IMG/VR virus record: IMGVR_UViG_3300040985_001478 | Coordinates: 1-30,964 of that record | Source: a virus | Lineage: Duplodnaviria; Caudoviricetes | Length of the DNA: 30,964 nucleotides | Reading direction: 5' to 3' (one strand) | In this document: positions 6,832-30,877 of the stretch, in pieces | Position numbering within the stretch: the stretch's first letter is position 1 | Layout of the letters: every line of letters begins with the position of its first letter | Translations under genes and position numbers: made by a program | Notes under the pieces: model-generated | The model's input: only the letters and a program-made list of their open reading frames with translations | What the model was told of the DNA's origin: nothing | Databases searched by the model: none

Positions 6832-8709
6832 ATGAGCACTAAAAACACAAAAGACAACAGAATCTCCAATCAACTAAGCGAAGACCTTTTAGATGAGATA
6901 GACTTTAAATTAGAAGAAAATGAGTTTTTTAATTACCTTTACGAACAAGGTATTGATGCTGAAAAACTTACAGAAGAAGAATTAGATGAGCTATTTGGCT
7001 TTGGTATGGATAGACAAACTTCTAGAGATGCTGCTAGAGACTCTCGAATGGCATCAAAGGAACGAAGAAGGAAACGAGGAATTCAAAGCGATGCTCAATC
7101 CTCCCGTCAACGCAGAAGACAGGCAATGAAGGATCGTGTTGCTAGCCTAAGCAAGAAAAAACCCGAGGGTCCATATAGAGGCAGCAATTTTACTGATGAA
7201 GACTATAAAAAGCTAGGAGAAACGCCCCCAGTGGCTAAGGCTCCGACTCTAAAAAAGACTCCGACTCCAAAAGAGACTCCGACTCCAAGAGGAAGATTCA
7301 ATCCTACCACAGGAAGAGGAGGTGACAACATGATCAGACCTTCTGTTCGTGCCAAAAGACTAAAGTCTAGACAAGGAACCGCAAAAGCAAAGGCTGCAAG
7401 CAAATTATATAACCCGAGTATGGCAGGTGGGACATCATCAAACACAATCGCTGCCAGCACTGACCTCGTTCGTGGTGCTCGTTTAGCGTTAGCAGAAGCT
7501 TGTTGGAAAGGCTATAAGGCTAGAGGGTTAAAAAAAAAATCCGGTAAGTTAGTCCCTAACTGTGTTAAAGAAAACAATAAAAACCTAAGTGTTAATGATC
7601 AGTTAGACCAAATGGATGCAGATCGAGCAGCTCGGCAAGCGAAAGTAAAAAAAATGAAGGAACCAGGAGGACCTCTTAGCACCCATCCGAAAGACATGAC
7701 ACCCCGAGGAGCAGATGGAACTCCTAAAACCTACAAAACCCAAAGCCCTTCCACCAAAACCCAAAGCCCTTCCACCAAAACCCAAAACTCTTCCACAGAA
7801 CTCGTTAGAAACTCTCGAATAGCTCTTGCTGAGAGGGTTTTAAGTGAAATCACCCGTTCTGAAGAGCATAGACTGTCGAAGGGTGGTGTTACAACAAATG
7901 CCATTAAGGCCGAAAGAGCTAAACGAAGGAAGACTGATCCAAAAGCTCAAAGGTATAGGGCGCGGGGTGTGACGCGATCACGAGGGAAAGAGGATGATAA
8001 CCCAGCGGCAGGCCATATCCGACGTTTGGCAGGACAAAAAGCAGAAACCAAACGACAGAATAAAAAATACGCTGATGCCAGAGCCGCAGGTAACGTCACA
8101 AAGGTAGTGACGGCTTCAGACAGCACAGAAATCATTAAGAAGGGTCGAATGGCTCTTGCTGAAAGGGTTTTAGAGGCGCGGCTTGGGAAAGCTCCAGTCG
8201 ATACGAAAAATCCTAAGAATAGAGTAAAGCTTATGAAGAAGGGTGCTAAAGCTGTTAAGAGCAGAGCAGATAATGTTGTCAACAAGGCAGCAGCACCTAA
8301 GGAAGAAGAACCACAACCAACGGTAAAAGCCACCAAACATAGTTCAGAAGGACCACTGGGCTATAGTAGATCAAATACATTGGACCACACAATGGCTGCC
8401 CACCGCACTAGATCAGGAGAACCCGTACCAAATCCAAGATCTACTAAAAGTTCTACAACTGCCCATGGTGGGAAAGCAGGTAGCGAAGAGAATAAGGTTA
8501 ACAGAGCAACCCCGGACGAAATCAATAGATCTAGATCAGATAATCCAGGTGAAGTGTTTAAGAGAGCAGGAAAGCAAAAACCCAAGGAACCAGCAGCATT
8601 TGGAACCTCTAAGAGAGCAGTTAATAGAGCTAAGAAAAAAGCTGCTAAGAAGAAGGTTTCAAACTACGCGGATGAGGTGGTGAGTGACCTTACGCCAAAA
8701 GACTATTAG
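6832..8709 (+). CDS. Highly basic modular protein, probable capsid-packaged internal protein processed by the prohead protease
   Basis: Acidic N-terminus with LxE sites (LSE, LDE, LEE, LYE, LTEEELDE), K/R-rich low-complexity segments, three copies of ST(D/E)(L/I)(V/I)(R/K)xxRxALAE and a CWKGY...GKLVPNCV motif. Confidence 0.6.
   Translation: MSTKNTKDNRISNQLSEDLLDEIDFKLEENEFFNYLYEQGIDAEKLTEEELDELFGFGMDRQTSRDAARDSRMASKERRRKRGIQSDAQSSRQRRRQAMKDRVASLSKKKPEGPYRGSNFTDEDYKKLGETPPVAKAPTLKKTPTPKETPTPRGRFNPTTGRGGDNMIRPSVRAKRLKSRQGTAKAKAASKLYNPSMAGGTSSNTIAASTDLVRGARLALAEACWKGYKARGLKKKSGKLVPNCVKENNKNLSVNDQLDQMDADRAARQAKVKKMKEPGGPLSTHPKDMTPRGADGTPKTYKTQSPSTKTQSPSTKTQNSSTELVRNSRIALAERVLSEITRSEEHRLSKGGVTTNAIKAERAKRRKTDPKAQRYRARGVTRSRGKEDDNPAAGHIRRLAGQKAETKRQNKKYADARAAGNVTKVVTASDSTEIIKKGRMALAERVLEARLGKAPVDTKNPKNRVKLMKKGAKAVKSRADNVVNKAAAPKEEEPQPTVKATKHSSEGPLGYSRSNTLDHTMAAHRTRSGEPVPNPRSTKSSTTAHGGKAGSEENKVNRATPDEINRSRSDNPGEVFKRAGKQKPKEPAAFGTSKRAVNRAKKKAAKKKVSNYADEVVSDLTPKDY
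7241..7288 (+). repeat. 18-bp in-frame tandem repeat (about 2.7 copies, ctccgactc core; xPTxKx)
   Basis: ctccgactc occurs at 7241, 7259 and 7277. Confidence 0.8.
7735..7797 (+). repeat. 21-bp in-frame tandem repeat x3 (KTQSPST, KTQSPST, KTQNSST)
   Basis: aaaacccaaagcccttccacc at 7735 and 7756; degenerate copy at 7777. Confidence 0.9.
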
Positions 8710-8738
8710 GATCCGATTTAGAAAAGTCTACAGTTAAG

Positions 8739-8744
8739 TAAATA
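8739..8744 (+). promoter_or_regulatory. Putative late promoter TAAATA, 5 nt before ATG 8750
   Basis: gTAAATAtaatcATG, with no SD. Confidence 0.45.
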
Positions 8745-8749
8745 TAATC

Positions 8750-9001
8750 ATGGCTTTAGCAAATTACATCCAAACAAGTTTCCCCATACAGGCAGAGCAG
8801 TTTGAAGTGTCTCGTACTCCTTGGCCCACAGGTGTTACTCTAGATGAAGAAAGTGGGATCTACTATATTGCTACAGAAATAGGTACCGTTGTAATAGAAG
8901 ATAGTGACTGGGTTGTGATCAACGAAGGGCGCACTAGAGTATGGACAGATCCTAACTTTAATTACGCATTCACTCCAGAAACTACTTTACCGGATCCATA
9001 G
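8750..9001 (+). CDS. Small hypothetical phage protein
   Basis: The pattern IQAEQF...IATEIG...DSDWVV resembles a common small phage beta domain (IxTxEG...GDWII); resemblance only. Confidence 0.65.
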   Translation: MALANYIQTSFPIQAEQFEVSRTPWPTGVTLDEESGIYYIATEIGTVVIEDSDWVVINEGRTRVWTDPNFNYAFTPETTLPDP

Positions 9002-10059
9002 GCTACACCATTACCAAAGCTAGAACCAACTTCAACATCAACTGCCAAAGGTGCTCTAAGATTGATGTTGAAGTTTTCTTTTAGGTAATGGTAATTCACC
9101 ATCTCATCCTTCACGATCTCCACAACCTTTCGAGTCTCATCCTTCGGGGCGATAAGTTCAATAGAGTCGTGGACAGTCGCTACTACCTTTGCCTTCATGC
9201 CTTTAAGTCTGTTGATTACCCCCATCATACCACATAGCAAAATATCGCTAGCAGCCGATTGAATCGTAAAGTTAAGACCCTGCCTAAATGACTCTCTTCG
9301 AATGTTCTTAAAGGGAGATCTTACATTAGGCAAGTGACGGTATCTTCCAAAGATTGTTTTAGCGTATCCAAACTGCTTAATGTAATCGTCAATCGTATTC
9401 ATGTAACGACCAACTCCAGGGAAAGCTCGCATCCACGAGTCAATAATCTCTTGGGCACGATCTTCAGGCATATTGTGCTTGGACGCAAGAGTAAAAGCTG
9501 TGCCTCCATATACTGTTAGGAAGCTTACAGCCTTAGCAATCTGGCGTTCAAGTTTGGTTACCTCACTAGGATCCTTATTAAAGGTTAACCCTGCTGAGTA
9601 GCTGTGAAGGTCCACACCAGTCTCGAATGCCTTGATCATATTAGCTTCGCGAGCTACATGGGCAAGAACTCGTAGCTCCATACCTGAGTAGTCAACAGTA
9701 ATAAAATCATGCCCCTTGGGTGCTACAACGTAATCCCTGATATTAACATCCAAGGACTCTCTGGGTAACGTATGGAAACTAACTCCAATCTTGTCAGACT
9801 TCTTTCTACCGATACTCGCACCAGAATTGGAAATACGTCCGGTAACAGTCCCGGTAATATTATAATTACAGTAGATCCTACCAGTTCCAGTATTCTTTAA
9901 GGAGTCTCGAACCCCCTCAATATAAGTTGAGTGTAACTTGTTATACTTCTTATACTCAGACAAACGATCAAAGAACTGCTTGGCTGAAATAACATCCTCG
10001 TCAGACATCCCAGCCAAGACAGACTTCGCGATTGCTACTTCCTCATTACCTCTAGCCAT
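8962..10059 (-). CDS. Family A DNA polymerase, part 3 (C-terminal thumb, palm and fingers)
   Basis: EYKKYNKLHSTY, TVTGRIS, motif A DYSGMELRVLAH, DLH, motif B RQIAKAVSFLTVYG, NFTIQSAASD and motif C TVHDS; SD-like GAGGT 7 nt before the ATG. Confidence 0.93.
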   Translation of the reverse strand: MARGNEEVAIAKSVLAGMSDEDVISAKQFFDRLSEYKKYNKLHSTYIEGVRDSLKNTGTGRIYCNYNITGTVTGRISNSGASIGRKKSDKIGVSFHTLPRESLDVNIRDYVVAPKGHDFITVDYSGMELRVLAHVAREANMIKAFETGVDLHSYSAGLTFNKDPSEVTKLERQIAKAVSFLTVYGGTAFTLASKHNMPEDRAQEIIDSWMRAFPGVGRYMNTIDDYIKQFGYAKTIFGRYRHLPNVRSPFKNIRRESFRQGLNFTIQSAASDILLCGMMGVINRLKGMKAKVVATVHDSIELIAPKDETRKVVEIVKDEMVNYHYLKENFNINLRAPLAVDVEVGSSFGNGVAYGSGKVVSGVNA

Positions 10060-10579
10060 TGTTGAGACCTCTAGAAATGTATTCCTCTTCTACCATGTTT
10101 TTAACTTTTGAAAGAGTCTCCTCGTTAGTAGAGGGTGCTCCTTTCTTAGTAAACTCAAAAGGATAGAGCTTAAGCCCAAAGTCATCCGATTGCATCCACT
10201 TACCCTCATCATCTTTGAAAAAAGAGTAAATAACATTAATCAACTGAGTTGTCGAGTTTAAGTTAGTCCCCTCTTCTAGTCCTGCTGCTAGTCTAAGATC
10301 AGCGTCAGCGTGCTTAATCTTCTCCTGCAATTCCTGATCTAATTGATTTAGCTTTGCCTCATCAATCAATAGACCTTCAAATTCCATGTCTCGAAAAACG
10401 AGAGATAAAGGTGAGATCAACTTTTCATACAGCTTCTCCAGTCCCTTCTCCTTAACCTCCTCCAACAGCTTTGCATACACTCTGGCTGTAAGGTCTGTAT
10501 CTTTAGCATTACCCTCTACACAGTCTTTGAGGGGTATGTTTTTGAAATCGAACTTGCTTGCGTTTTTAACTGATAACAT
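10052..10579 (-). CDS. Family A DNA polymerase, part 2 (ExoIII helix and N-terminal thumb)
   Basis: GNAKDTDLT (ExoIII-like), LYEKLISPLSLVFRDMEFEGLLID, NLNSTTQL and TKKGAPSTNEETL are collinear with the Pol I middle region. Confidence 0.88.
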   Translation of the reverse strand: MLSVKNASKFDFKNIPLKDCVEGNAKDTDLTARVYAKLLEEVKEKGLEKLYEKLISPLSLVFRDMEFEGLLIDEAKLNQLDQELQEKIKHADADLRLAAGLEEGTNLNSTTQLINVIYSFFKDDEGKWMQSDDFGLKLYPFEFTKKGAPSTNEETLSKVKNMVEEEYISRGLNNG

Positions 10580-11610
10580 TAGAAGGTCTCATTGGGGAAG
10601 TAATACTTTGCAAGGTCTGCTAAACTCTTAGGAATGTTCTCGTCAATAAAGTGTTGGAGAATCTTAGTATCAAAGACGTTATACACCTCCTCAACCCCAT
10701 ACCTCTTAAGAAACTTAAGATCGAATCCACAGTTCTGCATTACCTTCCTATTGGTTTTACTCTTCATCATATCGCATACGAACTTCATGAAAGCACCTTT
10801 CGCAGCATACCCAAGTTTAGCCTCTTTATGATCAATAGGCAACACTAAAGTCCCATGCAACTCCCCAGTTTCCCTATCCACTAGCGTCATAGAAACTGTA
10901 TGAATCGTATCGTGAAGAAAGTCTAAACCAGTAGTCTCCAAGTCTAAAGCAACATCAAACTCTGTATTGAGATATGTCTCCTTCACCTTGTTCAAATCAT
11001 CTATGCTAAGGCATAAAGTATATGGCGTGTGAGCCTCTACAGACCTCCCTAGTAGCTCGTTTTCAAAGGCGACACTTATATCCTTTGAGAATAGAAAGGC
11101 GTTCTTAGGCTCTGCTACGACCTGGAAAGGGTGAATAATCGGCACTACCTTGAACTTATGGCCGTTATCGGTCTCCATGAAGTCCGTCTTACCTCTGACC
11201 TTCCCTGATTCCTTGTTTCTACCATAAAGCATGTTGGTGGCTACGGCTCCACATGCAAACACCAGCTTAGGCTGGTAGCGATCAATAGTATCGAATAGGT
11301 GTGCCTTGCAAGACTTTCGAATGCCTGCACTTAAATTGTCCGCTGTAATGCTAGGGCATTTAACAGCAGTCGTAAATGCAACCTCCCAGTCACCTTCTTG
11401 GCGACTCAACTCTTCTCTAATGACCCTATACTCATTAGGTCGAAAGGCAGTATACTCCCCCTCAAACATCTTAGGTGAGTCAGATAAAAACAAGACATCA
11501 CAAGGCTCCCCATACTCGTAGTCTAAGATTGTGTGTTTTGGGAGCGGCATTTTCAAAGCAGGGCACCCCTCGCATTTGGGATTCTCGCCTTTGAAACTTA
11601 AGTTGGACAT
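10579..11610 (-). CDS. Family A DNA polymerase, part 1 (UDG family 4-like Fe-S domain plus ExoI/ExoII of the 3'-5' exonuclease)
   Basis: CEGC...VLFLSDSP...AVKC...C...IIHP (UDG4-like); ALDLETTGLD (ExoI), QNCGFDLKFL (ExoII), DTKIL and SLADLAKYY. Confidence 0.88.
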   Translation of the reverse strand: MSNLSFKGENPKCEGCPALKMPLPKHTILDYEYGEPCDVLFLSDSPKMFEGEYTAFRPNEYRVIREELSRQEGDWEVAFTTAVKCPSITADNLSAGIRKSCKAHLFDTIDRYQPKLVFACGAVATNMLYGRNKESGKVRGKTDFMETDNGHKFKVVPIIHPFQVVAEPKNAFLFSKDISVAFENELLGRSVEAHTPYTLCLSIDDLNKVKETYLNTEFDVALDLETTGLDFLHDTIHTVSMTLVDRETGELHGTLVLPIDHKEAKLGYAAKGAFMKFVCDMMKSKTNRKVMQNCGFDLKFLKRYGVEEVYNVFDTKILQHFIDENIPKSLADLAKYYFPNETF

Positions 11611-11627
11611 AAGACTATGATAGTGTA
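11611..11627. promoter_or_regulatory. Putative bidirectional leaderless promoter, palindrome ACTATGATAGT (11614-11624)
   Basis: TATGAT (+) and TATCAT (-) each lie exactly 6 nt from the divergent start codons GTG 11628 and ATG 11610. Confidence 0.65.
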
Positions 11628-11993
11628 GTGGGAAATTATATTGATAATGTAAAATTCGAAGAACTTATTCAAGAATTCAAAGGTGGAGATAGAAGCCACG
11701 AAAATGAACTCTTTGAAATGTTTGATGTGCTTATTGGTCGATTAATGCTTTCCTTTAGGTTTAACGTAGACCATGAGGAAGCAAAACAAGAATGCTTCCT
11801 ACTTATAATAAAGGTTCTGAACAACTTCAACAGGGAATCTGGTCAAGCGTTCAATTACTTTACTACAGTTATACTCAACAACTTAAGACTCATCTACTCT
11901 AAAAATAAGAAGTATAATGAGAAACTTGAGGCTTACAGGTGCCACAAAACCGGGAACTATATTCCCAGTTCTGCTCCGATCGCACCATTGTAA
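11628..11993 (+). CDS. Late-transcription sigma factor, T4 gp55-like (short)
   Basis: NYIDN...EAKQEC...NNFNRESGQAFNYFTTVILNN resembles the gp55/sigma region 2 pattern (NYVNN...NFD...PFAYFT); GTG start. Confidence 0.78.
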   Translation: MGNYIDNVKFEELIQEFKGGDRSHENELFEMFDVLIGRLMLSFRFNVDHEEAKQECFLLIIKVLNNFNRESGQAFNYFTTVILNNLRLIYSKNKKYNEKLEAYRCHKTGNYIPSSAPIAPL

Positions 11994-12388
11994 GAAACCA
12001 GTCTTGGGAATGATTTATGAACAACCACTAGTAAAGGGAGTTGATCATAAGATTGCAAGCATAAAGTGGAAACAGTCTCTCGATGAGACTTAATCACCAT
12101 ACGAATTGCAGCCAACGGGTCCCGATAATTAGGATAGTTTCCTGGATTACTGTTTTGAATGTCCGACCTAATATCAAACAGGTCAATAACATTAAGATCA
12201 ACAGAATCCTCCTCATAAGGACCGTCCCAATCTAACTTCGAGTTAAAGTAGTTGCAGACTTTATCCCATTGATTTACAATGAGATAATATGCTGAATTCT
12301 TAGACTCAATGTTATCTTTAACAATGGACTTTAAGTGTCCAATGTTTCGGATCTTAACTGGTTTGAAATTAGTCTTCTGCTTTTGCAT
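11957..12388 (-). CDS. Hypothetical protein, possible degenerate thioredoxin fold
   Basis: YYLIVNQWDKVC (WCxxC-like, first Cys lost), LNVID strand and QLPLLVVV (cis-Pro-like). Confidence 0.55.
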   Translation of the reverse strand: MQKQKTNFKPVKIRNIGHLKSIVKDNIESKNSAYYLIVNQWDKVCNYFNSKLDWDGPYEEDSVDLNVIDLFDIRSDIQNSNPGNYPNYRDPLAAIRMVIKSHRETVSTLCLQSYDQLPLLVVVHKSFPRLVSYNGAIGAELGI

Positions 12389-12692
12389 CCGTAGCTTCCT
12401 CTACAGGAGTTTCGGTATCGACTGCTCTCTCTGACTCTAGAGCTTGTTCAGCCTGTTCCTTTTGATTCTGTTCAACCAAACTACGAATTTGCTCTGTCAT
12501 CTGGTTACAGCCAGCAAAGAAAATCTGCTTATAAAAAGTCTCATCCTCTAGTTCTGGTGGCTTGAGCTTGCAAAAGTTCTTGAAACCTTCGGCTTCTTCT
12601 TTGGAAAATTTAATCTGAATCTTCATGCGTCCTCTCGATCTTTCGGTTAATTTAATTTTAGCATCTTTTAACGAAAATGATACTGAATCCAT
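12369..12692 (-). CDS. Hypothetical protein
   Basis: 107-aa ORF preceded by TATAAT at 6 nt; overlaps the downstream gene start. Confidence 0.75.
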   Translation of the reverse strand: MDSVSFSLKDAKIKLTERSRGRMKIQIKFSKEEAEGFKNFCKLKPPELEDETFYKQIFFAGCNQMTEQIRSLVEQNQKEQAEQALESERAVDTETPVEEATDAKAED

Positions 12693-12721: not shown

Positions 12722-13243
12722 ATGAAGGATAATTTTGACGTTACGCCATTGAAAAAGAAGAAGAAGGTTAATTCAAGAGCGAAAGGTAATAGATTTGAGA
12801 ATAAGATAGCAAAGATCTTGAATGATAGATTTAAGACCAAGGAGTTCTGTAGGAGTCCTGGGTCAGGTGCATTTGCTACTACCCATACTCTCCCTTCTTA
12901 TTTAAAGATTTATGGAGACCTTATAACCCCAGAGAAATTTAAATTCGTTCTTGAAATCAAGAAGGGATACAACGAAGAAAAAGTAAGTGATCTACTAAAT
13001 CCTAAATCTCAAATATTTAATATGATAGCTCAAGCTCATCGAGATTCTAAAAAATCTTCTAGAAAGTTTATTTTAATTATTGGGCAAGATCGTAGAGAAC
13101 CCGTGGCTATAACTAATGAATTAAATCTACCAGTCAAAGGTCCGAGTTTTAAAGGATCATTTGAAGACTTAGAAGTTTCAATGTTTAGGTTAAGTGATTT
13201 ATTGAGTATTAAGGATTCTTACTTTTTCCTTAATGATGTCTAA
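12722..13243 (+). CDS. Holliday junction resolvase, Hjc-like PD-(D/E)xK
   Basis: NSRAKGNRFE, RSPGSGA, GDLI and EIKK motifs; start revised to ATG 12722, after SD AGGAG. Confidence 0.82.
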   Translation: MKDNFDVTPLKKKKKVNSRAKGNRFENKIAKILNDRFKTKEFCRSPGSGAFATTHTLPSYLKIYGDLITPEKFKFVLEIKKGYNEEKVSDLLNPKSQIFNMIAQAHRDSKKSSRKFILIIGQDRREPVAITNELNLPVKGPSFKGSFEDLEVSMFRLSDLLSIKDSYFFLNDV

Positions 13244-15691
13244 AGCTTCCGTGAGCTTAAACAAATCATCAAGCACGGTAGCAGCGTCCTCTCTACTTTC
13301 CTCCTGACCCATTGATGCATTTCTAGTTGAAGCATTCTTAATAGAAGTTGCGGATCGGTAAGCAATCCACTTGCCATCTTTATAGGTTACAGAAATAGTT
13401 CTATTTGGATCAGAAGCATAGCTAAAAGTTAAAGATCCCTTACTAGGTTGAAAGTTCCATCTGCCATCTTTGGCCTTTATGGAATCAAGGGCAGATTGCA
13501 TCTCACCATTTTGAGTAGACACGTATGAAGCCATCTCATCTAAAGCATCGACCTGGAATACTGTACTGTTCCTAGCAGACCCTCCAGCAACATTAAATAC
13601 GGAAAGAGCATACAAAGCAGCTTTTCGATTCTCTTTCTCACCCTTCGCTGCCATTGTTTCAATCTTTGAAAGAGTGGTCATTTTGAACAGTTTATCCTTT
13701 ATCTTATCCTCAAACTTCTTGTCGGTCATCTTGGGATCACTAGCTTTCATGGCTTTGATGTATTCTTTCAACTCAGATAAATCGACATTCTCTTTTATCT
13801 CTTTAAAAGTCTTGTTCCTTTCAAGATGTGATACTAAACTATTAGCATAAGTTTTTAAAGAATTCTCAGTTATGACTCCATCCTTTGTCTTGATCTGAAC
13901 TTTAGACGATAGTTTATCGACGCTACCACTAATAGAGTTTATTTCTCTTTGAATTGCCCTGTTTGAAGCTTGATCGGGTTTAGAGATTTTACTATTAAAG
14001 TTTTGAGCACGGGGATCCTCACCCTTTAAGATAGTTTCACTAACCATACTAGCAGTAGTTTCCCCCTGTTTAGCAGAGCTTAGTCTGAGTAATGTCTTCA
14101 AGCTTACCTCAGAAGTATACAACATCTGGTCCTCGCTCTTAATAACTCCTGCTTTGATATACCTACCCAGAAGTTTAGGGTTATTCTTGAATACCTCAGA
14201 GGCAGGTGCTTCTGCAATATCATCCTCTGTGACTCGGGATTTTGTCTCTCCCCCAATCTGATACTCCTCACTCTTACGCAAACCCACTAATGCCTCTTCA
14301 CGGGATCCCCAACATTCTAAAACGTCCTGCTTATTCCCCTTTCCAACCTGTTCAGCGACTTGCACTGTAACCAGTGGCTTTCTTAATCTAGATGTTGTCG
14401 CCGCCATGGTAAGTATAGCAGTCATGAACCTCATAGTTTTTTCTTTATCACCTACAATTTCGGAGATAGTTTCAATCTCTGCTTGCTCTTCCTCGCTAAC
14501 AACCGCACCCTGCGATTTATCAATCCAAGACTCTCGCTGCTCATTGAGGTTTGAAAGTAAGTCTAAAACTTCTTTTGATTTTTCCACTACTATTTCTTGT
14601 AAGGCTATGATCTCTGGGGTTTCTACACCCTTTCCAGCAGCAGCCTTCGCTCTCACAAGGCTTGTAAGGTCCGTGCCGACCACCTTAGCAATCTCCCCTA
14701 ACGTCCCTCTAATATTACTTTCAGCCCCTACACTCCCTGCCACAACCGCTTTAGTAGCCGACTGAGGTTCTAAAGAACATCCCGCCATACCCATTAGACC
14801 CTTAAGAGATCTGCTAGCAGACTCAGAGTTAAACACCCTACCGGACCACCCTCGACCCTCTTCATCCATTTCAGTGTAAACGGTTACACCAAATAAACCA
14901 CCACCCTCAGTCACTTTAAACTTACCACAAGCCTCTTTTTTAGAAGACTCGTCACCAGTTGCCGCTTTTGCTAGGATAGTTAAAGCTTTTGATATTTCCA
15001 AGGACTGGCTAGCAATCGCAGGCTCAGAGCCAATAAGGTATTGACCTGTTACCCCGTCGAACCTTAATACAGGAACATCGTTTACGAGTTGTCTCTCGAC
15101 GTTACCTACTTGATTTCCCCTTAAAAATTGTAGGTGCTTTTTGCAAGAATCCCACTCAGGTCCGGGCCTGAACTTTACCACCCCCTGATAGTCTGGATTT
15201 ATCTGACCGTCCTCAGTGCATAAGGCTTGGGTAGCAAGCTGTTCAAACTCATTAACATTTGACACTAACTCCTCAACAATTTCAGGATTATTTTTTGCCA
15301 TGCCCGACTTAAAAACAGACTGAAGCCTCTTACGGCGATCTTTCCTGTCCTTCTCTTCTTTACTTGTACCTCCTTCTCCAAATAGACCAACAAACTCAGC
15401 CCATCCATCAGATGTCGTTAAGTCATGTGGATGAAAGTTATTGACCTTGCCGTCCGAGCCTACAAGTCCTCCAATCGGATGCTTATCGCTGCCTTTGATA
15501 TATACTCCTATAGTCTTCCCATTAGATGCCACTACTTTGGCGGGGTTGCTAAAGGAAGCCTTATTCGCAATTGCAGTATCCTTAAGTTGTGTAGCCTGCA
15601 CTTCAGGATCTAAGCCCTCCTCCTCCAATAGCCTAAGCTTGCGACCTTTAACTCGACTAAAACTTTCCAATAACTCAGTGAAAAAATCCAT
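13199..15691 (-). CDS. Large hypothetical protein, possibly virion-packaged, with PD-(D/E)xK-like motifs
   Basis: N-terminus MDFFTELLES...LRLLEE (LxE sites); internal RGTLGE...KQDV...EVSLK. Confidence 0.55.
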   Translation of the reverse strand: MDFFTELLESFSRVKGRKLRLLEEEGLDPEVQATQLKDTAIANKASFSNPAKVVASNGKTIGVYIKGSDKHPIGGLVGSDGKVNNFHPHDLTTSDGWAEFVGLFGEGGTSKEEKDRKDRRKRLQSVFKSGMAKNNPEIVEELVSNVNEFEQLATQALCTEDGQINPDYQGVVKFRPGPEWDSCKKHLQFLRGNQVGNVERQLVNDVPVLRFDGVTGQYLIGSEPAIASQSLEISKALTILAKAATGDESSKKEACGKFKVTEGGGLFGVTVYTEMDEEGRGWSGRVFNSESASRSLKGLMGMAGCSLEPQSATKAVVAGSVGAESNIRGTLGEIAKVVGTDLTSLVRAKAAAGKGVETPEIIALQEIVVEKSKEVLDLLSNLNEQRESWIDKSQGAVVSEEEQAEIETISEIVGDKEKTMRFMTAILTMAATTSRLRKPLVTVQVAEQVGKGNKQDVLECWGSREEALVGLRKSEEYQIGGETKSRVTEDDIAEAPASEVFKNNPKLLGRYIKAGVIKSEDQMLYTSEVSLKTLLRLSSAKQGETTASMVSETILKGEDPRAQNFNSKISKPDQASNRAIQREINSISGSVDKLSSKVQIKTKDGVITENSLKTYANSLVSHLERNKTFKEIKENVDLSELKEYIKAMKASDPKMTDKKFEDKIKDKLFKMTTLSKIETMAAKGEKENRKAALYALSVFNVAGGSARNSTVFQVDALDEMASYVSTQNGEMQSALDSIKAKDGRWNFQPSKGSLTFSYASDPNRTISVTYKDGKWIAYRSATSIKNASTRNASMGQEESREDAATVLDDLFKLTEALDIIKEKVRILNTQ

Positions 15692-25621: not shown

Positions 25622-28201
25622 TTATATCCTAACTCTGGTAACATTATACCGATCCTCGAAAGTCACAATAGTTTTTGAATCCTCGGGAATGATCCTTGAT
25701 AAGGTATCATAGCCTCCTTCAATATGCTTAAAAGTAATATTATTACGTAGTCCTTTAGCAATATCTAGGATTAGGTCCTTATCGCTATCATAAAACATCC
25801 GACCTACTTGACTCACTGGCATTCGACTGAAAACATCGAACCACGTTAACGTTGTCGAACTGTAGGTGTCTGAAAGATAATCAATAACATCTTTTAAAAG
25901 ATAAGAGGTTCCGTAAGAGGAGGCAGGAGCCGAGCTTGTCCCATACCCTCGGGCACTAGCCGAGTAGAAGGTATTAGTGAAGTTATCCTCTACGTATCGG
26001 TATCCAATATTTTGATTGCTCTCAGGTTCCGAAGCTCCTACACGATCTACCCCATCCACTAGGTTTAAATTGTACGCTTCAAACAGGGGTAAAGGAGATT
26101 CGTCTATCGTGGCATTTATAGCGGGTAAGACCGATAAAGACCTTACATGAGTATCCCCGTAGTTTAAAAGTTTCGAACTACCATTAAGGGGGTTAAACAT
26201 CCCTCCTGCTACAGGAGTTACCACAATCCCGAAAGGTATATTTTTAACAAATCTAGAACCTAATGAGGAAAGACCTTGATCAGGAAATGCAGCTAAGTTA
26301 AAATCATTTAAAGATACCGTAACGGTTGAGGTGTCGAGAATATACCGATACAAGGGGTCCCTGTAATCAATAGCCAGCATTGCAGTATTAAGAGCGTTAT
26401 TATTCATATGCACTTGTATATCTTCACTGTCCGTAAGAAGGGAGTATGTTCCGCCGTAATTCTCTACTAAAGGGTTTTCTGTGTAAGCCCCTTCTACAGA
26501 ACCAAGATTAAGAGCGAAGAACAAAGGTTTAGTGGCAGATGAACCTAAATCTCCAGATGCAAACTCGTGCTTATTAATCAATGAAGAGGCAGTGAATGTT
26601 AAAGTGGGGTCAACATTTAACATATCTAAAACTTTCATTCTAACAGGAGGGGGAGCGTAGTAAGCTTGGGTTATAATATTGGTGCTCGGAATGGCTCGTT
26701 CTTGGGACTGTAGGTCTTCACCGTTAATGTAATAACCCCCTCCATTTCCAATATTAAGACTACTAGGGCTTCCAACACTAGGTACCGTTAGTTGTTCTAA
26801 CTTAGTAATCTTATCCACTTCAATACCTTGATTAGGGATACGAAGATTTTTCACTTCACCCGTTAAGGTTGTAACTTCTACACCTAAGTTAAGGTCTTGA
26901 TTTAAAGGTCTAGCTCTATTTATTTGAAAGTTTCTCCAAGTTGATGGTTTAGTGTTTTCAAAAGTATGTAGGTTATTAGTTAAGTATTGGATAGCAAAAC
27001 GTTCCGTATACTCAGTATTCTCTGAGCCTTCAATAACCTCAAAGGAGGATTCAAATTGCCCTAACGAAGCGGCCCTAAAATAGTCGTAATCAAACTCATC
27101 AATCGTTCCTTCCAATAAATGCTTTCGAATGACGTTCAATAAAGTAGTAACCCCTACTGGCTTACCTCCAGGATATCTTAAGTATTGAAAAGAATTAACA
27201 ATCCCTGGACTTAAACTGGCTAACAACTTGTCATCGGACAAATTTTGAAGAGAAACCTCATCCCAGGCTATGTTAGAGTTTTGAATGCTTAACAACTTTG
27301 AAATCTCAGGAGCCATTTCACGATTAAATACCAAGGTATTAGTAGTGTAGTTTCTTTCCAACTCAGTGTTAGTATCAGGCCCCACTTTAAAGAAGTTTAA
27401 ATTAGGATCATATAACTGAGGTTGAGTAGTTCCTCGCTGCTGTTGCCGATAATCTTCAGGGCTAATTACTTCGTTCGCAGTTATGACCTTAGCATTCATA
27501 GATTCTTGGTTACTTATTATTTGTTCAGATTGAACTTCCTTTTGAATACTTAAAGGTGTAATTTCGTTAGTAAGGGTAGCGATTCCTTGTCCTGTATTGA
27601 TAGAGCCAGCAGCCCCCAGAACACTCCCTAAGCCAGAATTAGGGTCTTGAGGATCTACTCCATTTAATTGACGTAGGACAGGCAACGCACCTCCAGGGCA
27701 AACTAAACCAGTAGAGACGTTTGCTGTACAAGCAGCTTGACAAGCAGCTAAAGAAGGATGAATGCATTCAGTATCAACAATTACCTCTCCGTTAGCATTT
27801 AAGTAGGTAGGACTGCAAGTAACACAATTAAACTGAAAAGATATTGGAGTGATTTGATTTAGAGGAACATATTCCTCCCCAGGACATACATTTACACTTA
27901 CAGCTACGCACTTATGGTAGGTGACAGGTCCTCCAACGTTGGTAGATGTTGGTCCTTGGCCTGGGATGTTAGGAACGTTGGTGAATGTTGGTCCTTGGCC
28001 TGGGATGTTAGGAACGTTGGGAGGCTCGATTACTGGGGTATTAGGGATCCAGGGAGGGTCCCAAGGACCGCTAGGAGGAGGAGTAGTAGTGGGAGTCAAT
28101 ATGACTGGAATTATGGGGGGTTCTGACCCACCTGACCCTTGACCTTGTGTCCCAGGCAGATTACCACGACCACAAGGATATACAGTTGTGAAGCCAGTCA
28201 T
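25622..28201 (-). CDS. Large hypothetical (probably virion) protein with Pro-rich and Cys-rich N-terminus
   Basis: 859-aa ORF in the structural module; no family recognised. Confidence 0.7.
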   Translation of the reverse strand: MTGFTTVYPCGRGNLPGTQGQGSGGSEPPIIPVILTPTTTPPPSGPWDPPWIPNTPVIEPPNVPNIPGQGPTFTNVPNIPGQGPTSTNVGGPVTYHKCVAVSVNVCPGEEYVPLNQITPISFQFNCVTCSPTYLNANGEVIVDTECIHPSLAACQAACTANVSTGLVCPGGALPVLRQLNGVDPQDPNSGLGSVLGAAGSINTGQGIATLTNEITPLSIQKEVQSEQIISNQESMNAKVITANEVISPEDYRQQQRGTTQPQLYDPNLNFFKVGPDTNTELERNYTTNTLVFNREMAPEISKLLSIQNSNIAWDEVSLQNLSDDKLLASLSPGIVNSFQYLRYPGGKPVGVTTLLNVIRKHLLEGTIDEFDYDYFRAASLGQFESSFEVIEGSENTEYTERFAIQYLTNNLHTFENTKPSTWRNFQINRARPLNQDLNLGVEVTTLTGEVKNLRIPNQGIEVDKITKLEQLTVPSVGSPSSLNIGNGGGYYINGEDLQSQERAIPSTNIITQAYYAPPPVRMKVLDMLNVDPTLTFTASSLINKHEFASGDLGSSATKPLFFALNLGSVEGAYTENPLVENYGGTYSLLTDSEDIQVHMNNNALNTAMLAIDYRDPLYRYILDTSTVTVSLNDFNLAAFPDQGLSSLGSRFVKNIPFGIVVTPVAGGMFNPLNGSSKLLNYGDTHVRSLSVLPAINATIDESPLPLFEAYNLNLVDGVDRVGASEPESNQNIGYRYVEDNFTNTFYSASARGYGTSSAPASSYGTSYLLKDVIDYLSDTYSSTTLTWFDVFSRMPVSQVGRMFYDSDKDLILDIAKGLRNNITFKHIEGGYDTLSRIIPEDSKTIVTFEDRYNVTRVRI
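27935..28020 (-). repeat. 39-bp in-frame tandem repeat (2.2 copies; NVPNIPGQGPTxT)
   Basis: aacgttggt(ag/ga)atgttggtccttggcctgggatgttagg at 27935 and 27974; partial copy at 28013. Confidence 0.9.
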
Positions 28202-28210
28202 ACTATTTAA

Positions 28211-30877
28211 TTATATGCAGTTGATAGTTGGACCAAAATTTCTAAGAGTTCCAGTGGTTCCCTTACCTTTATTGACAGAATCTAGAGTTAGCCCGACCAC
28301 TTGGAAGGTGACCGAAGGGTAAAGTAAAGGATGCATTGCAGTCAACCAATCCACAGATGCATAGCCTGCATGGTTCGAAGCTATTCCATTATTTACAACT
28401 TCGTTAAAGAACACAGAGTCACGGTATCCCGACTGAGTATCTGGGCCACCATCAACCATATACGTTTTTATAGATCTAGGAGGTGTTCGTTTAAATGGAG
28501 AATTACCTATAAGGGGGATTTCTGGGAGAGTAAATCCAGTGAACGCTTCAACATCGTTTCGATTTGCCCACGGCTTATTTTTAATTCCAGAATCTATGTC
28601 TCCCCAGGAATTACCGATCCAAGCAACATTTATAACAAAGTAATCCTTGTATTTATTAACCCATACGTTGCTTGATTGTGCATTTCCATTGCTGCCAGTA
28701 GCTCCCGTTGACAACGGGATGCAATTTAGAAGATCAACATTTACCTGATAGTCACTAACCCATGGAGTATTATCGAAATTCAAATTAATCCTCTTCTTTA
28801 CAAAGAAGATCTGAGCCATATGTCCCTCGTTTAAACGCCTTGAGTTACCATTATTAAGACCAACGGGAGTAGCTCCTCTTATTTCTCTTGTGCTATTTCC
28901 AAAGGATTGCTCGTATGCAACTCTTTGACCAGCAGCCCATCGGAAGTTGGCAATGCCTTCTGGATAAGCACCCCTAATTTCGTTAATCGATCGCTGTGAG
29001 AACCCTCCTTTTGCAGGAGGAAGCAGGGCGGCCCGACCTTCCGCACCGTCAGGCTCAGAACACCATCCAAGACCTACGTTAATGTAGTCATTAATTCCAT
29101 CGCCTGTAAACCCTGCTTCAGTATACCAGTCCGCTTTATCCCATTGAGGGAGTTGACCAATACTTCCAGGGGTGTAGGAAAACTCGTCTTCGATTATATC
29201 TGCGAACACGTTAAAACTAAGAGGCTCTATCCCTCCACCAATGTTAATCGCGGCATGTCGCATAAGGGCACCTTCAGGTCCAAAATTACCACCAGTTAGT
29301 TGACCAGTAGCAATAATCCTACTTCCTTCACCAACAGACTGAGTAGAAGGTGAAGGAGAGGGAGTTTGAATGCCTTCAATCTTATTATTTAAGGAGGTAT
29401 ATAATTCGCTTCTAACTTGATCTAAATAAGTCTCGGTAACTACAGGATTAACAATAGAAACTTGAGGAGTTGCGGCGGCAATACCTGCACGCTCATTATA
29501 TGCTAACTCTGTAGTTCTAAAGAACGGTCTAATATCTATAATATCCTCTTCTGTAATTAAATCAGCAATAGGACCCGCAGCAGTTTGAACTCTAATATAA
29601 GCAATCGGAAGAATAGATTGACCTATTAAAGGAAGCGCATTGGTTTCTAAATTCTCAGACAATACCGGGGCCAGATTCATTAAATCATCAGGAGAGGGGA
29701 AAGACCCTTTAATAAATCCCGCTGAAGTAGAGAATCCTACATCACTCCCATTCTCATCCCCAGGATGAGCTAACATTAAAGGAGTTCCATCCAAGCTTTG
29801 TATATCTACAAGATCTTTATATATCTCAGTACTATTAGAAGCAACAACTTCCCTGCTAAGACCAACGCCTGCTCCCTTGACGATACCTAATTCTGCCCTC
29901 GTTATTTTAGTTGGAATACCGTTGACAAACTTATTAATTGTAGTTGAACTTTCGTCAATTGCTTTAGTGTATATAAACAACAGGTCAATTCTTTGATTAC
30001 TAGCCAAAGGTTGCCTTACCCCATTTGAATCAAAATAGAAGAAGTCATTCGGATCGTAATCTGGGATCGTAATTTCTAACTCTTCAGGGATATCAACAAC
30101 GGAGGTCCTAATCGCACCCCTCCATCTTTTTATAAAAGTTGACTCCATTCTTCCTTGATTTTTAGCGGCTGAGTATCGAATTGCATTCTTAGATTCTTCA
30201 CGGGAACTATCTATATTAAATGCAGGTTGGCTACCTTGATAGTTTGGGTAAGGAGCAAATTGAAAATTATTAGTAAAAGGTAGCCCTCTTCCGTAATCCC
30301 CATACCCAGGAGTCGAAACATTTAAAAACTTGAAAGGATTAGCAGGGTTATCAATTCCGTTTAAATCTCCAATAGGATATACAAACGCTCTTTCATATAA
30401 ACCATTCATCATGAATGCCGCACCTAAAAGCCCTTGTTGAAACTCGTCCAATGAAGCTTTCACTACGTCACCATGTATAGTTTCACTCTCCCATACCTTA
30501 TACTGACCATTCAGGGTCTCGCCTAGATTCCCGGTGACGGAAAACCCAGCAATTTGCTCCACAGTCTGTAAAGGAGTTAAATCATAGGCGTTGTTAACCC
30601 TAGCTGTATATTTACCCGGCTTAACCCTAACCTTACGATCATTTCCCGTGGCATATGGCTTTAGCTCCGAGAACCCCTTCCTATCGATTTCAACATTTAG
30701 ATTGTCTTTAAAGTTTAATAAACCGTCTACCTGATCCTTAAGAAACTTAGAACTTTCCTCTAATTGCTTAATTGGAATATTATCAACTTCATAGTAGTAG
30801 GGGTCGTTAGCCTTAAAATACCTAACAGGGTCGATAAACGTGTAGGGTGTGTCAAAATATGAAAATTCGTTAGCCAT
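28211..30877 (-). CDS. Large hypothetical virion structural protein
   Basis: 888-aa ORF with QRIDLL and IIDIRPF patterns reminiscent of phage tail/baseplate-associated beta domains; upstream TATAAATA at 30903-30910. Confidence 0.7.
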   Translation of the reverse strand: MANEFSYFDTPYTFIDPVRYFKANDPYYYEVDNIPIKQLEESSKFLKDQVDGLLNFKDNLNVEIDRKGFSELKPYATGNDRKVRVKPGKYTARVNNAYDLTPLQTVEQIAGFSVTGNLGETLNGQYKVWESETIHGDVVKASLDEFQQGLLGAAFMMNGLYERAFVYPIGDLNGIDNPANPFKFLNVSTPGYGDYGRGLPFTNNFQFAPYPNYQGSQPAFNIDSSREESKNAIRYSAAKNQGRMESTFIKRWRGAIRTSVVDIPEELEITIPDYDPNDFFYFDSNGVRQPLASNQRIDLLFIYTKAIDESSTTINKFVNGIPTKITRAELGIVKGAGVGLSREVVASNSTEIYKDLVDIQSLDGTPLMLAHPGDENGSDVGFSTSAGFIKGSFPSPDDLMNLAPVLSENLETNALPLIGQSILPIAYIRVQTAAGPIADLITEEDIIDIRPFFRTTELAYNERAGIAAATPQVSIVNPVVTETYLDQVRSELYTSLNNKIEGIQTPSPSPSTQSVGEGSRIIATGQLTGGNFGPEGALMRHAAINIGGGIEPLSFNVFADIIEDEFSYTPGSIGQLPQWDKADWYTEAGFTGDGINDYINVGLGWCSEPDGAEGRAALLPPAKGGFSQRSINEIRGAYPEGIANFRWAAGQRVAYEQSFGNSTREIRGATPVGLNNGNSRRLNEGHMAQIFFVKKRINLNFDNTPWVSDYQVNVDLLNCIPLSTGATGSNGNAQSSNVWVNKYKDYFVINVAWIGNSWGDIDSGIKNKPWANRNDVEAFTGFTLPEIPLIGNSPFKRTPPRSIKTYMVDGGPDTQSGYRDSVFFNEVVNNGIASNHAGYASVDWLTAMHPLLYPSVTFQVVGLTLDSVNKGKGTTGTLRNFGPTINCI

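Follow-up and report, generated by a model that had tools for sequence, protein, structure and literature searches.

A family A DNA polymerase laid out as three conserved genes in an uncultured marine phage, with a proofreading site predicted to span two chains

Family A DNA polymerases (PolA) are textbook single chains; can one also be built from three separately made proteins? This question is raised by record IMGVR_UViG_3300040985_001478 (Caudoviricetes), a linear fragment, 26% complete, of an uncultured marine phage, of which we analysed 30,964 nt (the window). By its neighbouring genes (gp23, sheath, tube, SbcC/D, NrdA and ThyX, from Pfam and PHROG) the phage is a T4-like myovirus, and its family A polymerase is encoded by three minus-strand open reading frames (ORFs) of 343, 175 and 365 amino acids (aa), here called genes 1 to 3, with products referred to as parts or subunits 1 to 3. 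Our answer, from sequence comparison, is that these are three conserved PolA genes whose products likely assemble without covalent linkage, with a proofreading site predicted to be made by two chains. The features on which the argument rests are the following, where UDG stands for uracil-DNA glycosylase and AF2 for AlphaFold2.

10579..11610, minus strand: subunit 1, 343 aa; family-4 UDG-like domain and N-terminal part of the 3'-5' exonuclease (ExoI D223/E225, ExoII D297), assigned from Pfam, alignment, an AF2 model (pLDDT 85) and Foldseek matches to the phiLo PolA 9qhs, family-4 UDGs and Klenow.
10052..10579, minus strand: subunit 2, 175 aa; ExoIII helix G23-N24-A-K-D27, exonuclease-to-palm helices, first part of the thumb and a C-terminal helix extension.
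8962..10059, minus strand: subunit 3, 365 aa; added N-terminal amphipathic helix, remaining thumb, palm and fingers, with motif A D123, motif B R172/K176/F180/Y184 and motif C H297-D298-S299, assigned from PF00476 (E 8e-76) and alignment.
10577..10581, minus strand: junction 1, a TAATG stop/start overlap, likely with termination-reinitiation coupling.
10052..10059, minus strand: junction 2, the start/stop overlap ATGGCTAG.
10067..10071, minus strand: Shine-Dalgarno (SD)-like GAGGT for subunit 3, within the last codons of gene 2.

Pfam finds UDG and DNA_pol_A_exo1 in part 1, no match in part 2 and DNA_pol_A in part 3, and all three parts match PHROG 17 in order (profile positions 544-785, 796-912 and 930-1237). 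Together with the coordinates, this bears out a preliminary description of the locus, made from its letters alone, which had read the three ORFs as collinear pieces of one UDG-exonuclease-PolA enzyme. The junctions which it had described, a TAATG and an overlap preceded by GAGGT, are confirmed by the sequence (TTC-TAATG at the first, GAGGT-7 nt-ATGGCTAG at the second), and so are the stops just upstream of the new start codons, since the frames of parts 2 and 3 open only 3 and 10 sense codons ahead of their ATGs. Parts 1 and 3 lie in one frame, and the two other frames across part 2 carry 10 and 24 stops.

Are the breaks real? The frame shared by parts 1 and 3 had led to the caveat that two compensating indels might have divided a single gene, and a sequencing or assembly artefact of this kind, or a decaying pseudogene, has to be considered. 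Mapping reads across the junctions had been proposed as a check; we found both junctions crossed without gaps or indels by contigs from four runs of four studies (one of these runs may be the source sample), which refutes an artefact. The same breaks are present in more than 100 distinct loci and are kept in relatives down to about 35% identity, so that the caveat of compensating indels can be set aside. Furthermore, all three genes are under purifying selection, with nonsynonymous polymorphism (pN) of 0.02-0.08 against synonymous polymorphism (pS) of 0.31-0.67 in six close pairs of relatives, and 38 of the 40 strain variants listed, from a total of 52, are synonymous. The middle part is also of constant length: among its homologues, 49 of 54 have 169-178 aa (search window 96-307 aa), and among the best 98 matches of a search without length limit 81 have 150-185 aa, 14 are shorter and 3 longer, with 78 of the 81 starting Met-Leu. 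Each of five long records out of five, two of them 99-100% complete, has one PolA match and no PolB match; as the sole polymerase match in these records, the split PolA is probably the replicase of the phage. A search for the sliding clamp with PF09116 gave no match, and control sequences were likewise unmatched. Purifying selection and the absence of another polymerase match argue against a pseudogene, and we give artefact or decay a negligible probability.

If the breaks are real, are the products made separately or joined into one chain? Matches were found in 264 loci, 128 of them distinct once near-identical copies were removed; the two lists of relatives are the best 80 of 271 and the best 80 of 360, so that the count of fusions covers the closer relatives only. 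All three parts are held by 117 of the 128 distinct loci, and in 0 of the 128 are two parts joined in one frame. The search of related phages for the same breakpoints, also proposed earlier, thus finds them unfused in these loci, while remoter relatives with one cut exist, as described below. Junction 1 (n=122) is a -1 overlap in 103 loci and holds inserts of 274-663 nt in 13; junction 2 (n=120) is a 4-44 nt overlap in 118 loci, a 2-nt gap in one and a 585-nt insert in one. All three frame relations occur at each of the two junctions, and an ATG, GTG or TTG start is present at every junction scored. The genes carried in the junctions encode HNH nuclease, 2-oxoglutarate (2OG)-Fe(II) oxygenase, DUF6445 and a 91-aa hydrophobic protein that is TAATG-coupled at both ends, and some lie on the opposite strand. 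In locus L140 (2853-3470) an HNH endonuclease fills junction 1, with no space for an intron core, and in L150 (2274-2831, 3360-3986) both junctions are occupied, the first by a 2OG-Fe(II) oxygenase gene and the second by a DUF6445 gene. L101 carries two inserted opposite-strand genes, and inspection by eye shows one of them between the copies of a 17-nt direct repeat (1472-1488 and 1762-1778) that matches gene 1 at its end.

The conserved breaks, the varied frames, the foreign genes in the junctions and the conserved initiation signals strongly support three separately initiated genes, not one chain, and uphold the earlier view of the junctions as evolved gene boundaries. A single chain could still be made by programmed frameshifting, translational bypass, RNA splicing or protein trans-splicing, and the commonest frame relations, -1 at junction 1 (106/122) and +1 at junction 2 (110/120), as well as two-gene relatives in which a continuous part 2+3 is viable, would fit such a mechanism. 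Frameshifting, bypass or splicing is improbable, since junctions that show all three frame relations and hold unrelated and opposite-strand genes would be hard to span; the start codon at every scored junction and the conserved SD ahead of gene 3 also speak against it. Moreover, a slippery XXXYYYZ heptamer was found near the end of gene 1 in 0/52 loci and near the end of gene 2 in 8/52. There was no Rfam match in the window or in 17 insert-bearing loci and no intein Pfam match, and the junctions overlap, leaving no room for an intron; the earlier claim of no intein and no intron-sized gap therefore stands. Altogether a single chain appears very improbable.

How would three separate genes be started? 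Pairing with the anti-SD sequence of -4 kcal or better is found at 88% of 52 gene-3 starts, against 29% of 1040 internal sites, at 40% of gene-2 starts and at 6% of gene-1 starts. Upstream of gene 1 there is another element:

11615..11623, no strand assigned: near-palindromic CTAT(C/G)ATAG, -10-like, 6 nt ahead of the gene-1 start and of a divergent start at 11628.

A -10-like box lies 4-9 nt upstream of the gene-1 start in 75/111 loci, against 30/1230 random sites. Ahead of gene 2 it is found in 0/109 coupled loci, in 0/6 loci with same-strand inserts and in 4/7 loci whose inserts lie on the opposite strand or hold no ORF. On this pattern, translation of gene 1 would start on a leaderless mRNA, that of gene 2 would follow when ribosomes reinitiate at TAATG, and an SD lying within gene 2 would direct the start of gene 3. 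These three modes may yield roughly equal amounts of the subunits, and gene 2 would acquire its own promoter when an insert cuts it off.

Where in the enzyme do the breaks fall? Residues 8-159 of the part-2 profile align to Klenow chain positions 159-294, with D27 as the ExoIII Asp and G23 at the position of the ExoIII Tyr (which we take to be D501 and Y497 in E. coli). By this alignment, break 1 interrupts the loop leading into the ExoIII helix, and break 2 the tip of the thumb. The first break had been placed inside the proofreading domain and the second inside the thumb, and both placements are right: ExoI D223/E225 and ExoII D297 are in part 1 and ExoIII D27 is in part 2. Across 53 sequences the residues D223, E225, D297, D27, D123 and D298 are invariant, as are motif A (D123), motif B (R172/K176/F180/Y184) and H297-D298 of motif C, which reads HDS, not HDE. 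The system therefore has motifs A, B and C and the ExoI, ExoII and ExoIII carboxylates of family A, and lacks the ExoIII Tyr (YxxxD) and the one-polypeptide Klenow fold. In subunit 2 the invariant residues in the same 53 sequences are M1, L2, G23, N24, D27, T31, E66, G69, S109, P140, E166 and R170. The ExoIII Tyr is replaced by Gly in 153/154 proteins that begin at break 1, and kept in 257/260 long proteins with an internal ExoIII motif. At junction 1 little length was gained or lost compared with the single-chain protein P0409; at junction 2 a hand count gives about 30 residues more than in the two-gene form L275, which lengthen part 2 by a helix extension and give part 3 its amphipathic helix. 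The best Foldseek match to the model of part 1 is 9qhs. Part 2 modelled alone is a string of helices (pTM 0.49), a fold that fits a chain needing partners without proving it, and Foldseek gave this subunit alone no match at E 0.001 or better, the top rows all being Pol I.

The UDG domain raises a separate question, that of its activity. A family-4 UDG fold N-terminal to the exonuclease is supported by PF03167 (E 1.6e-6), by PDB 4zbx (E 3e-13) and by Foldseek, and the domain retains the Phe, the HP motif and four invariant Cys (13, 16, 85 and 101), which are likely a 4Fe-4S site. Its motif A is SDSxK, with SDS where GEG is expected, and T, S or A replaces the Asn before KC; it thus departs from active family-4 UDGs, which have GE(A/G)PG in motif A and a uracil-binding Asn before KC. 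With these replacements uracil excision was probably lost, much as N4-like enzymes are reported to have lost it. The first reading as UDG-exonuclease-PolA holds for the fold, and an active glycosylase is improbable with catalytic residues missing; the domain probably serves as a structural or DNA-binding module.

The part-2 search also brought up longer proteins, of 480-563 aa, which begin at break 1 and extend across the polymerase. With these forms as the query, 58 of 80 loci join parts 2 and 3 in one chain, and in 54 of the 58 gene 1 stands apart within the locus; a further 18 loci have the three-gene layout and 4 are partial, while a fusion of parts 1 and 2 occurs in none. In a two-gene sister group (L274-L339), divided into UDG-exonuclease and the rest, 31 of 43 distinct loci have junction inserts of up to 3732 nt, several of which hold a recurring gene of about 330 aa. 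The subunit-1 sequences examined from this group are without the CxxC and KC cysteines. In quick trees, scored by the Shimodaira-Hasegawa-like approximate likelihood ratio test (SH-aLRT), the split forms all group together against single-chain outgroups (SH-aLRT 100). In approximately unbiased (AU) tests, chosen after the first tree was seen and run on 41 of its 92 rows, a single clade of three-gene rows was rejected (p=0.004), as was a single clade of two-gene rows (p=0.009). From these sequence comparisons, the thumb cut appears to have switched state on more than one occasion. Of the two cuts, that in the proofreading domain is the older, since the two-gene sister group has this cut only, and the simplest order is break 1 first and break 2 later. 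Break 1 would have arisen in the ancestor of the two-gene and three-gene lineage along with the loss of the ExoIII Tyr, whose change to Gly is one ancestral event, not many, and the thumb cut would have come later and changed state repeatedly.

Some forms stand between the two groups. L315, L320 and L328 are three-gene forms nested within the two-gene group, and in L315 and L320 only the thumb-cut segment leans to the main three-gene clade, being as close to it or closer; recombination or a second fission would both fit this pattern, and for all three loci recombinational import or convergence of this segment is possible. P0348 (563 aa) has parts 2 and 3 in one chain with both thumb extensions kept, and is nested in the three-gene clade in both trees, with a placement outside not rejected (AU p=0.43); it may be a re-fusion or a long-linker form from before the fission. 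Word-index searches for longer forms gave only Pol I (29-36% identity) and single-chain UDG-PolA (23-26%), which is weak evidence of absence as one such search missed two-gene forms of 515-563 aa. No cultured member was found by tblastn against 50,697 phage records, where the best of the matches listed have about 24-36% identity.

How would three products work as one enzyme? We hypothesise that they join without covalent linkage into one replicative polymerase, in which D27 of the middle chain would complete the proofreading site. Subunit 2 would be a scaffold that supplies subunit 1 with the ExoIII helix and subunit 3 with thumb helices, and the roughly 30 added residues around the thumb cut would form a new helix-helix contact. 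Alternatively, the genes may be separate without a stable proofreading holoenzyme, such that subunits 2 and 3 are the polymerase and subunit 1 binds transiently or has a weak or inactive exonuclease. The Gly at the ExoIII Tyr position, the distance of gene 1 in the two-gene group (up to 3.7 kb), where the Fe-S cysteines appear lost in the sequences examined, and the SDS in place of GEG in the UDG domain would be in keeping with this. Against it, neither the four exonuclease carboxylates, which are divided between two chains, nor Met1-Leu2 of subunit 2 show any variation, and the exonuclease fold includes the ExoIII helix as an integral element. Moreover, the exonuclease domain is described as required for PolA stability (PMC10201439). 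We therefore judge the lack of a stable proofreading holoenzyme to be unlikely.

Several points weigh against our main reading. With the ExoIII Tyr lost, proofreading may be weakened. The codons of E166 and R170 overlap initiation signals, AGAGG as SD in one subgroup and cGTG as start in another, and this entanglement makes their conservation weaker evidence for an interface. As the box behind opposite-strand inserts reads almost alike on both strands, it may act for the inserted gene and not for gene 2. Most loci keep an identical net frame (-1, then +1), and the count of no fusions comes from lists of best matches, beyond which fused forms of parts 2 and 3 exist (58/80 loci). Finally, the outgroup branches of the tree are long, its support is SH-aLRT only, and the main three-gene clade has a support of 86-89. 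A further proposal, which we regard as rather doubtful, is that the new chain ends are themselves working parts of a heterotrimer whose subunits evolve as separable modules. Met1-Leu2 of the middle chain would occupy the place of the lost ExoIII Tyr, the helices at the cut thumb tip would be a latch on DNA or a docking site, and the thumb cut would have arisen and then moved by recombination (the L315 group) or re-closed within one lineage.

Is such a layout without precedent? Replicative polymerases encoded in pieces are known from family B, with gp43A/B of some T4 relatives and Methanothermobacter PolB as examples. In PhiKZ the family B proteins DNAP-N and DNAP-C are described as a stable two-chain 1:1 complex (PMC13648687), which shows that a replicative polymerase can be stable when its pieces are encoded apart, but these are two chains and of family B. 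In family A, a two-gene split of exonuclease and polymerase was described in S-SBP1/S-TIP37-like (clade B) T7-like cyanophages and called the first in PolAs (Czernecki 2023, PMC10201439), and is mentioned also in PMC12695635. The present system resembles the S-SBP1-type enzyme in gene fission, overlapping stop and start, no intein, a probable replicative role and predicted reassembly. However, the S-SBP1-type PolA has one cut separating the exonuclease and polymerase domains, belongs to the T7 subfamily and has no UDG (PMC10201439), whereas here two cuts lie within domains (before ExoIII and at the thumb tip), a UDG domain is present, the phage is a T4-like myovirus, the junctions accept foreign genes and residues were added at the thumb cut. 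In its presumed way of working the three-gene PolA is akin to the S-SBP1 split enzyme, although it falls outside that group.

The UDG-PolAs are described as fused chains (PMC10201439), and single-chain forms are reported for N4-like cluster 17, SPO1/SP-10 and the SP15-like phiLo and YerA41 (PMC10201439, PMC13697223; PDB 9qhs). They share the UDG-exonuclease-polymerase order with our system, and 9qhs is the top Foldseek match for subunit 1; by contrast, they are one chain, and the nearest of them are 23-26% identical. In UDG motif A the present system has LFLSD where phiLo has LLVGE, and T, S or A stands for the Asn of NxxKC. The word "split" occurs 0 times in the paper on phiLo and YerA41 (PMC13697223) and its preprint. 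A closer likeness is found in the Caulobacter podophage Kuura (OQ067476), where a gene for UDG and ExoI/II is separate from a gene for ExoIII and polymerase, with the cut in the same loop and two genes in between; unlike our locus it has two polymerase genes only, and keeps the ExoIII Tyr. Kuura is remotely related (part-3 profile E 3e-6, part-2 profile no match) and its cut is likely of independent origin. Because Kuura combines a similar cut with a retained Tyr, we rejected the notion that break 1 can exist only where the ExoIII Tyr is lost. The excerpts of PMC9959647 do not mention the split of Kuura. MEP401-like marine phages of OM43 have the polymerase in two genes with a small ORF between, for which the authors left an intron open (PMC10580990); these are two parts in a different phage group.

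The preliminary description had named Pol I, T7 gp5, T5 and SPO1 PolA as single chains; split PolA as such has precedents in the published two-gene exonuclease and polymerase split and in Kuura, but no three-gene PolA is among the literature matches listed. Excerpts of PMC7824862, PMC11348598, PMC9959647 and PMC5628999 hold nothing on a three-gene layout; the polymerase tables of PMC10201439 and PMC11348598 could list such pieces. The three-gene PolA goes beyond the published two-gene split polymerases.

Around the polymerase genes, a divergent gene of 121 aa (window 11611-11993) with a weak Sigma70_r2 match (E 0.008) starts 17 nt from gene 1, and a similar divergent gene adjoins gene 1 in the relatives L001, L002, L101 and L265. 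The CTAT(C/G)ATAG box between the two genes is likely a two-way leaderless promoter, and a box of this kind also lies ahead of the start at 12692. A sigma-70 scan of 8600-12100 gave no excess of sites, and no terminators were found. On the other side, between gene 3 and ThyX (6832-9001), there are two plus-strand genes, of 625 aa (basic, low complexity) and 83 aa, the latter overlapping gene 3 at its end; close strains differ in this slot, since the strain contigs X4 and X7 diverge left of 9005. In the structural region three proteins of 830-888 aa (13199-15691, 25622-28201 and 28211-30877) have no Pfam or PHROG match, and a tRNA search found none. The relative L265 (G001:C3) is a whole T4-like phage contig of 130,604 nt within a Prochlorococcus single-cell genome, and encodes primase, DnaB, SSB, UvsX, a UvsW-like helicase, two dCMP deaminases and a sugar-modification gene block. 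Of its 154 ORFs 130 were scanned, and none of these was named as a photosynthesis gene; infection and contamination are both possible, and we do not accept Prochlorococcus as the host.

Maintained by selection across a widespread lineage of marine phages, a three-chain PolA reveals at which points the Klenow fold can bear a break, and a T4-like group uses PolA where PolB is expected. The forms with one cut, two cuts and a long linker occur within one lineage, so that the order of the fissions can be studied. At the same time, omission of subunits and domain swaps become straightforward for questions of proofreading, thumb movement and the UDG module, and the breaks are natural split sites for engineered polymerases. 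Surveys of polA that apply length filters would throw out these genes as truncated.

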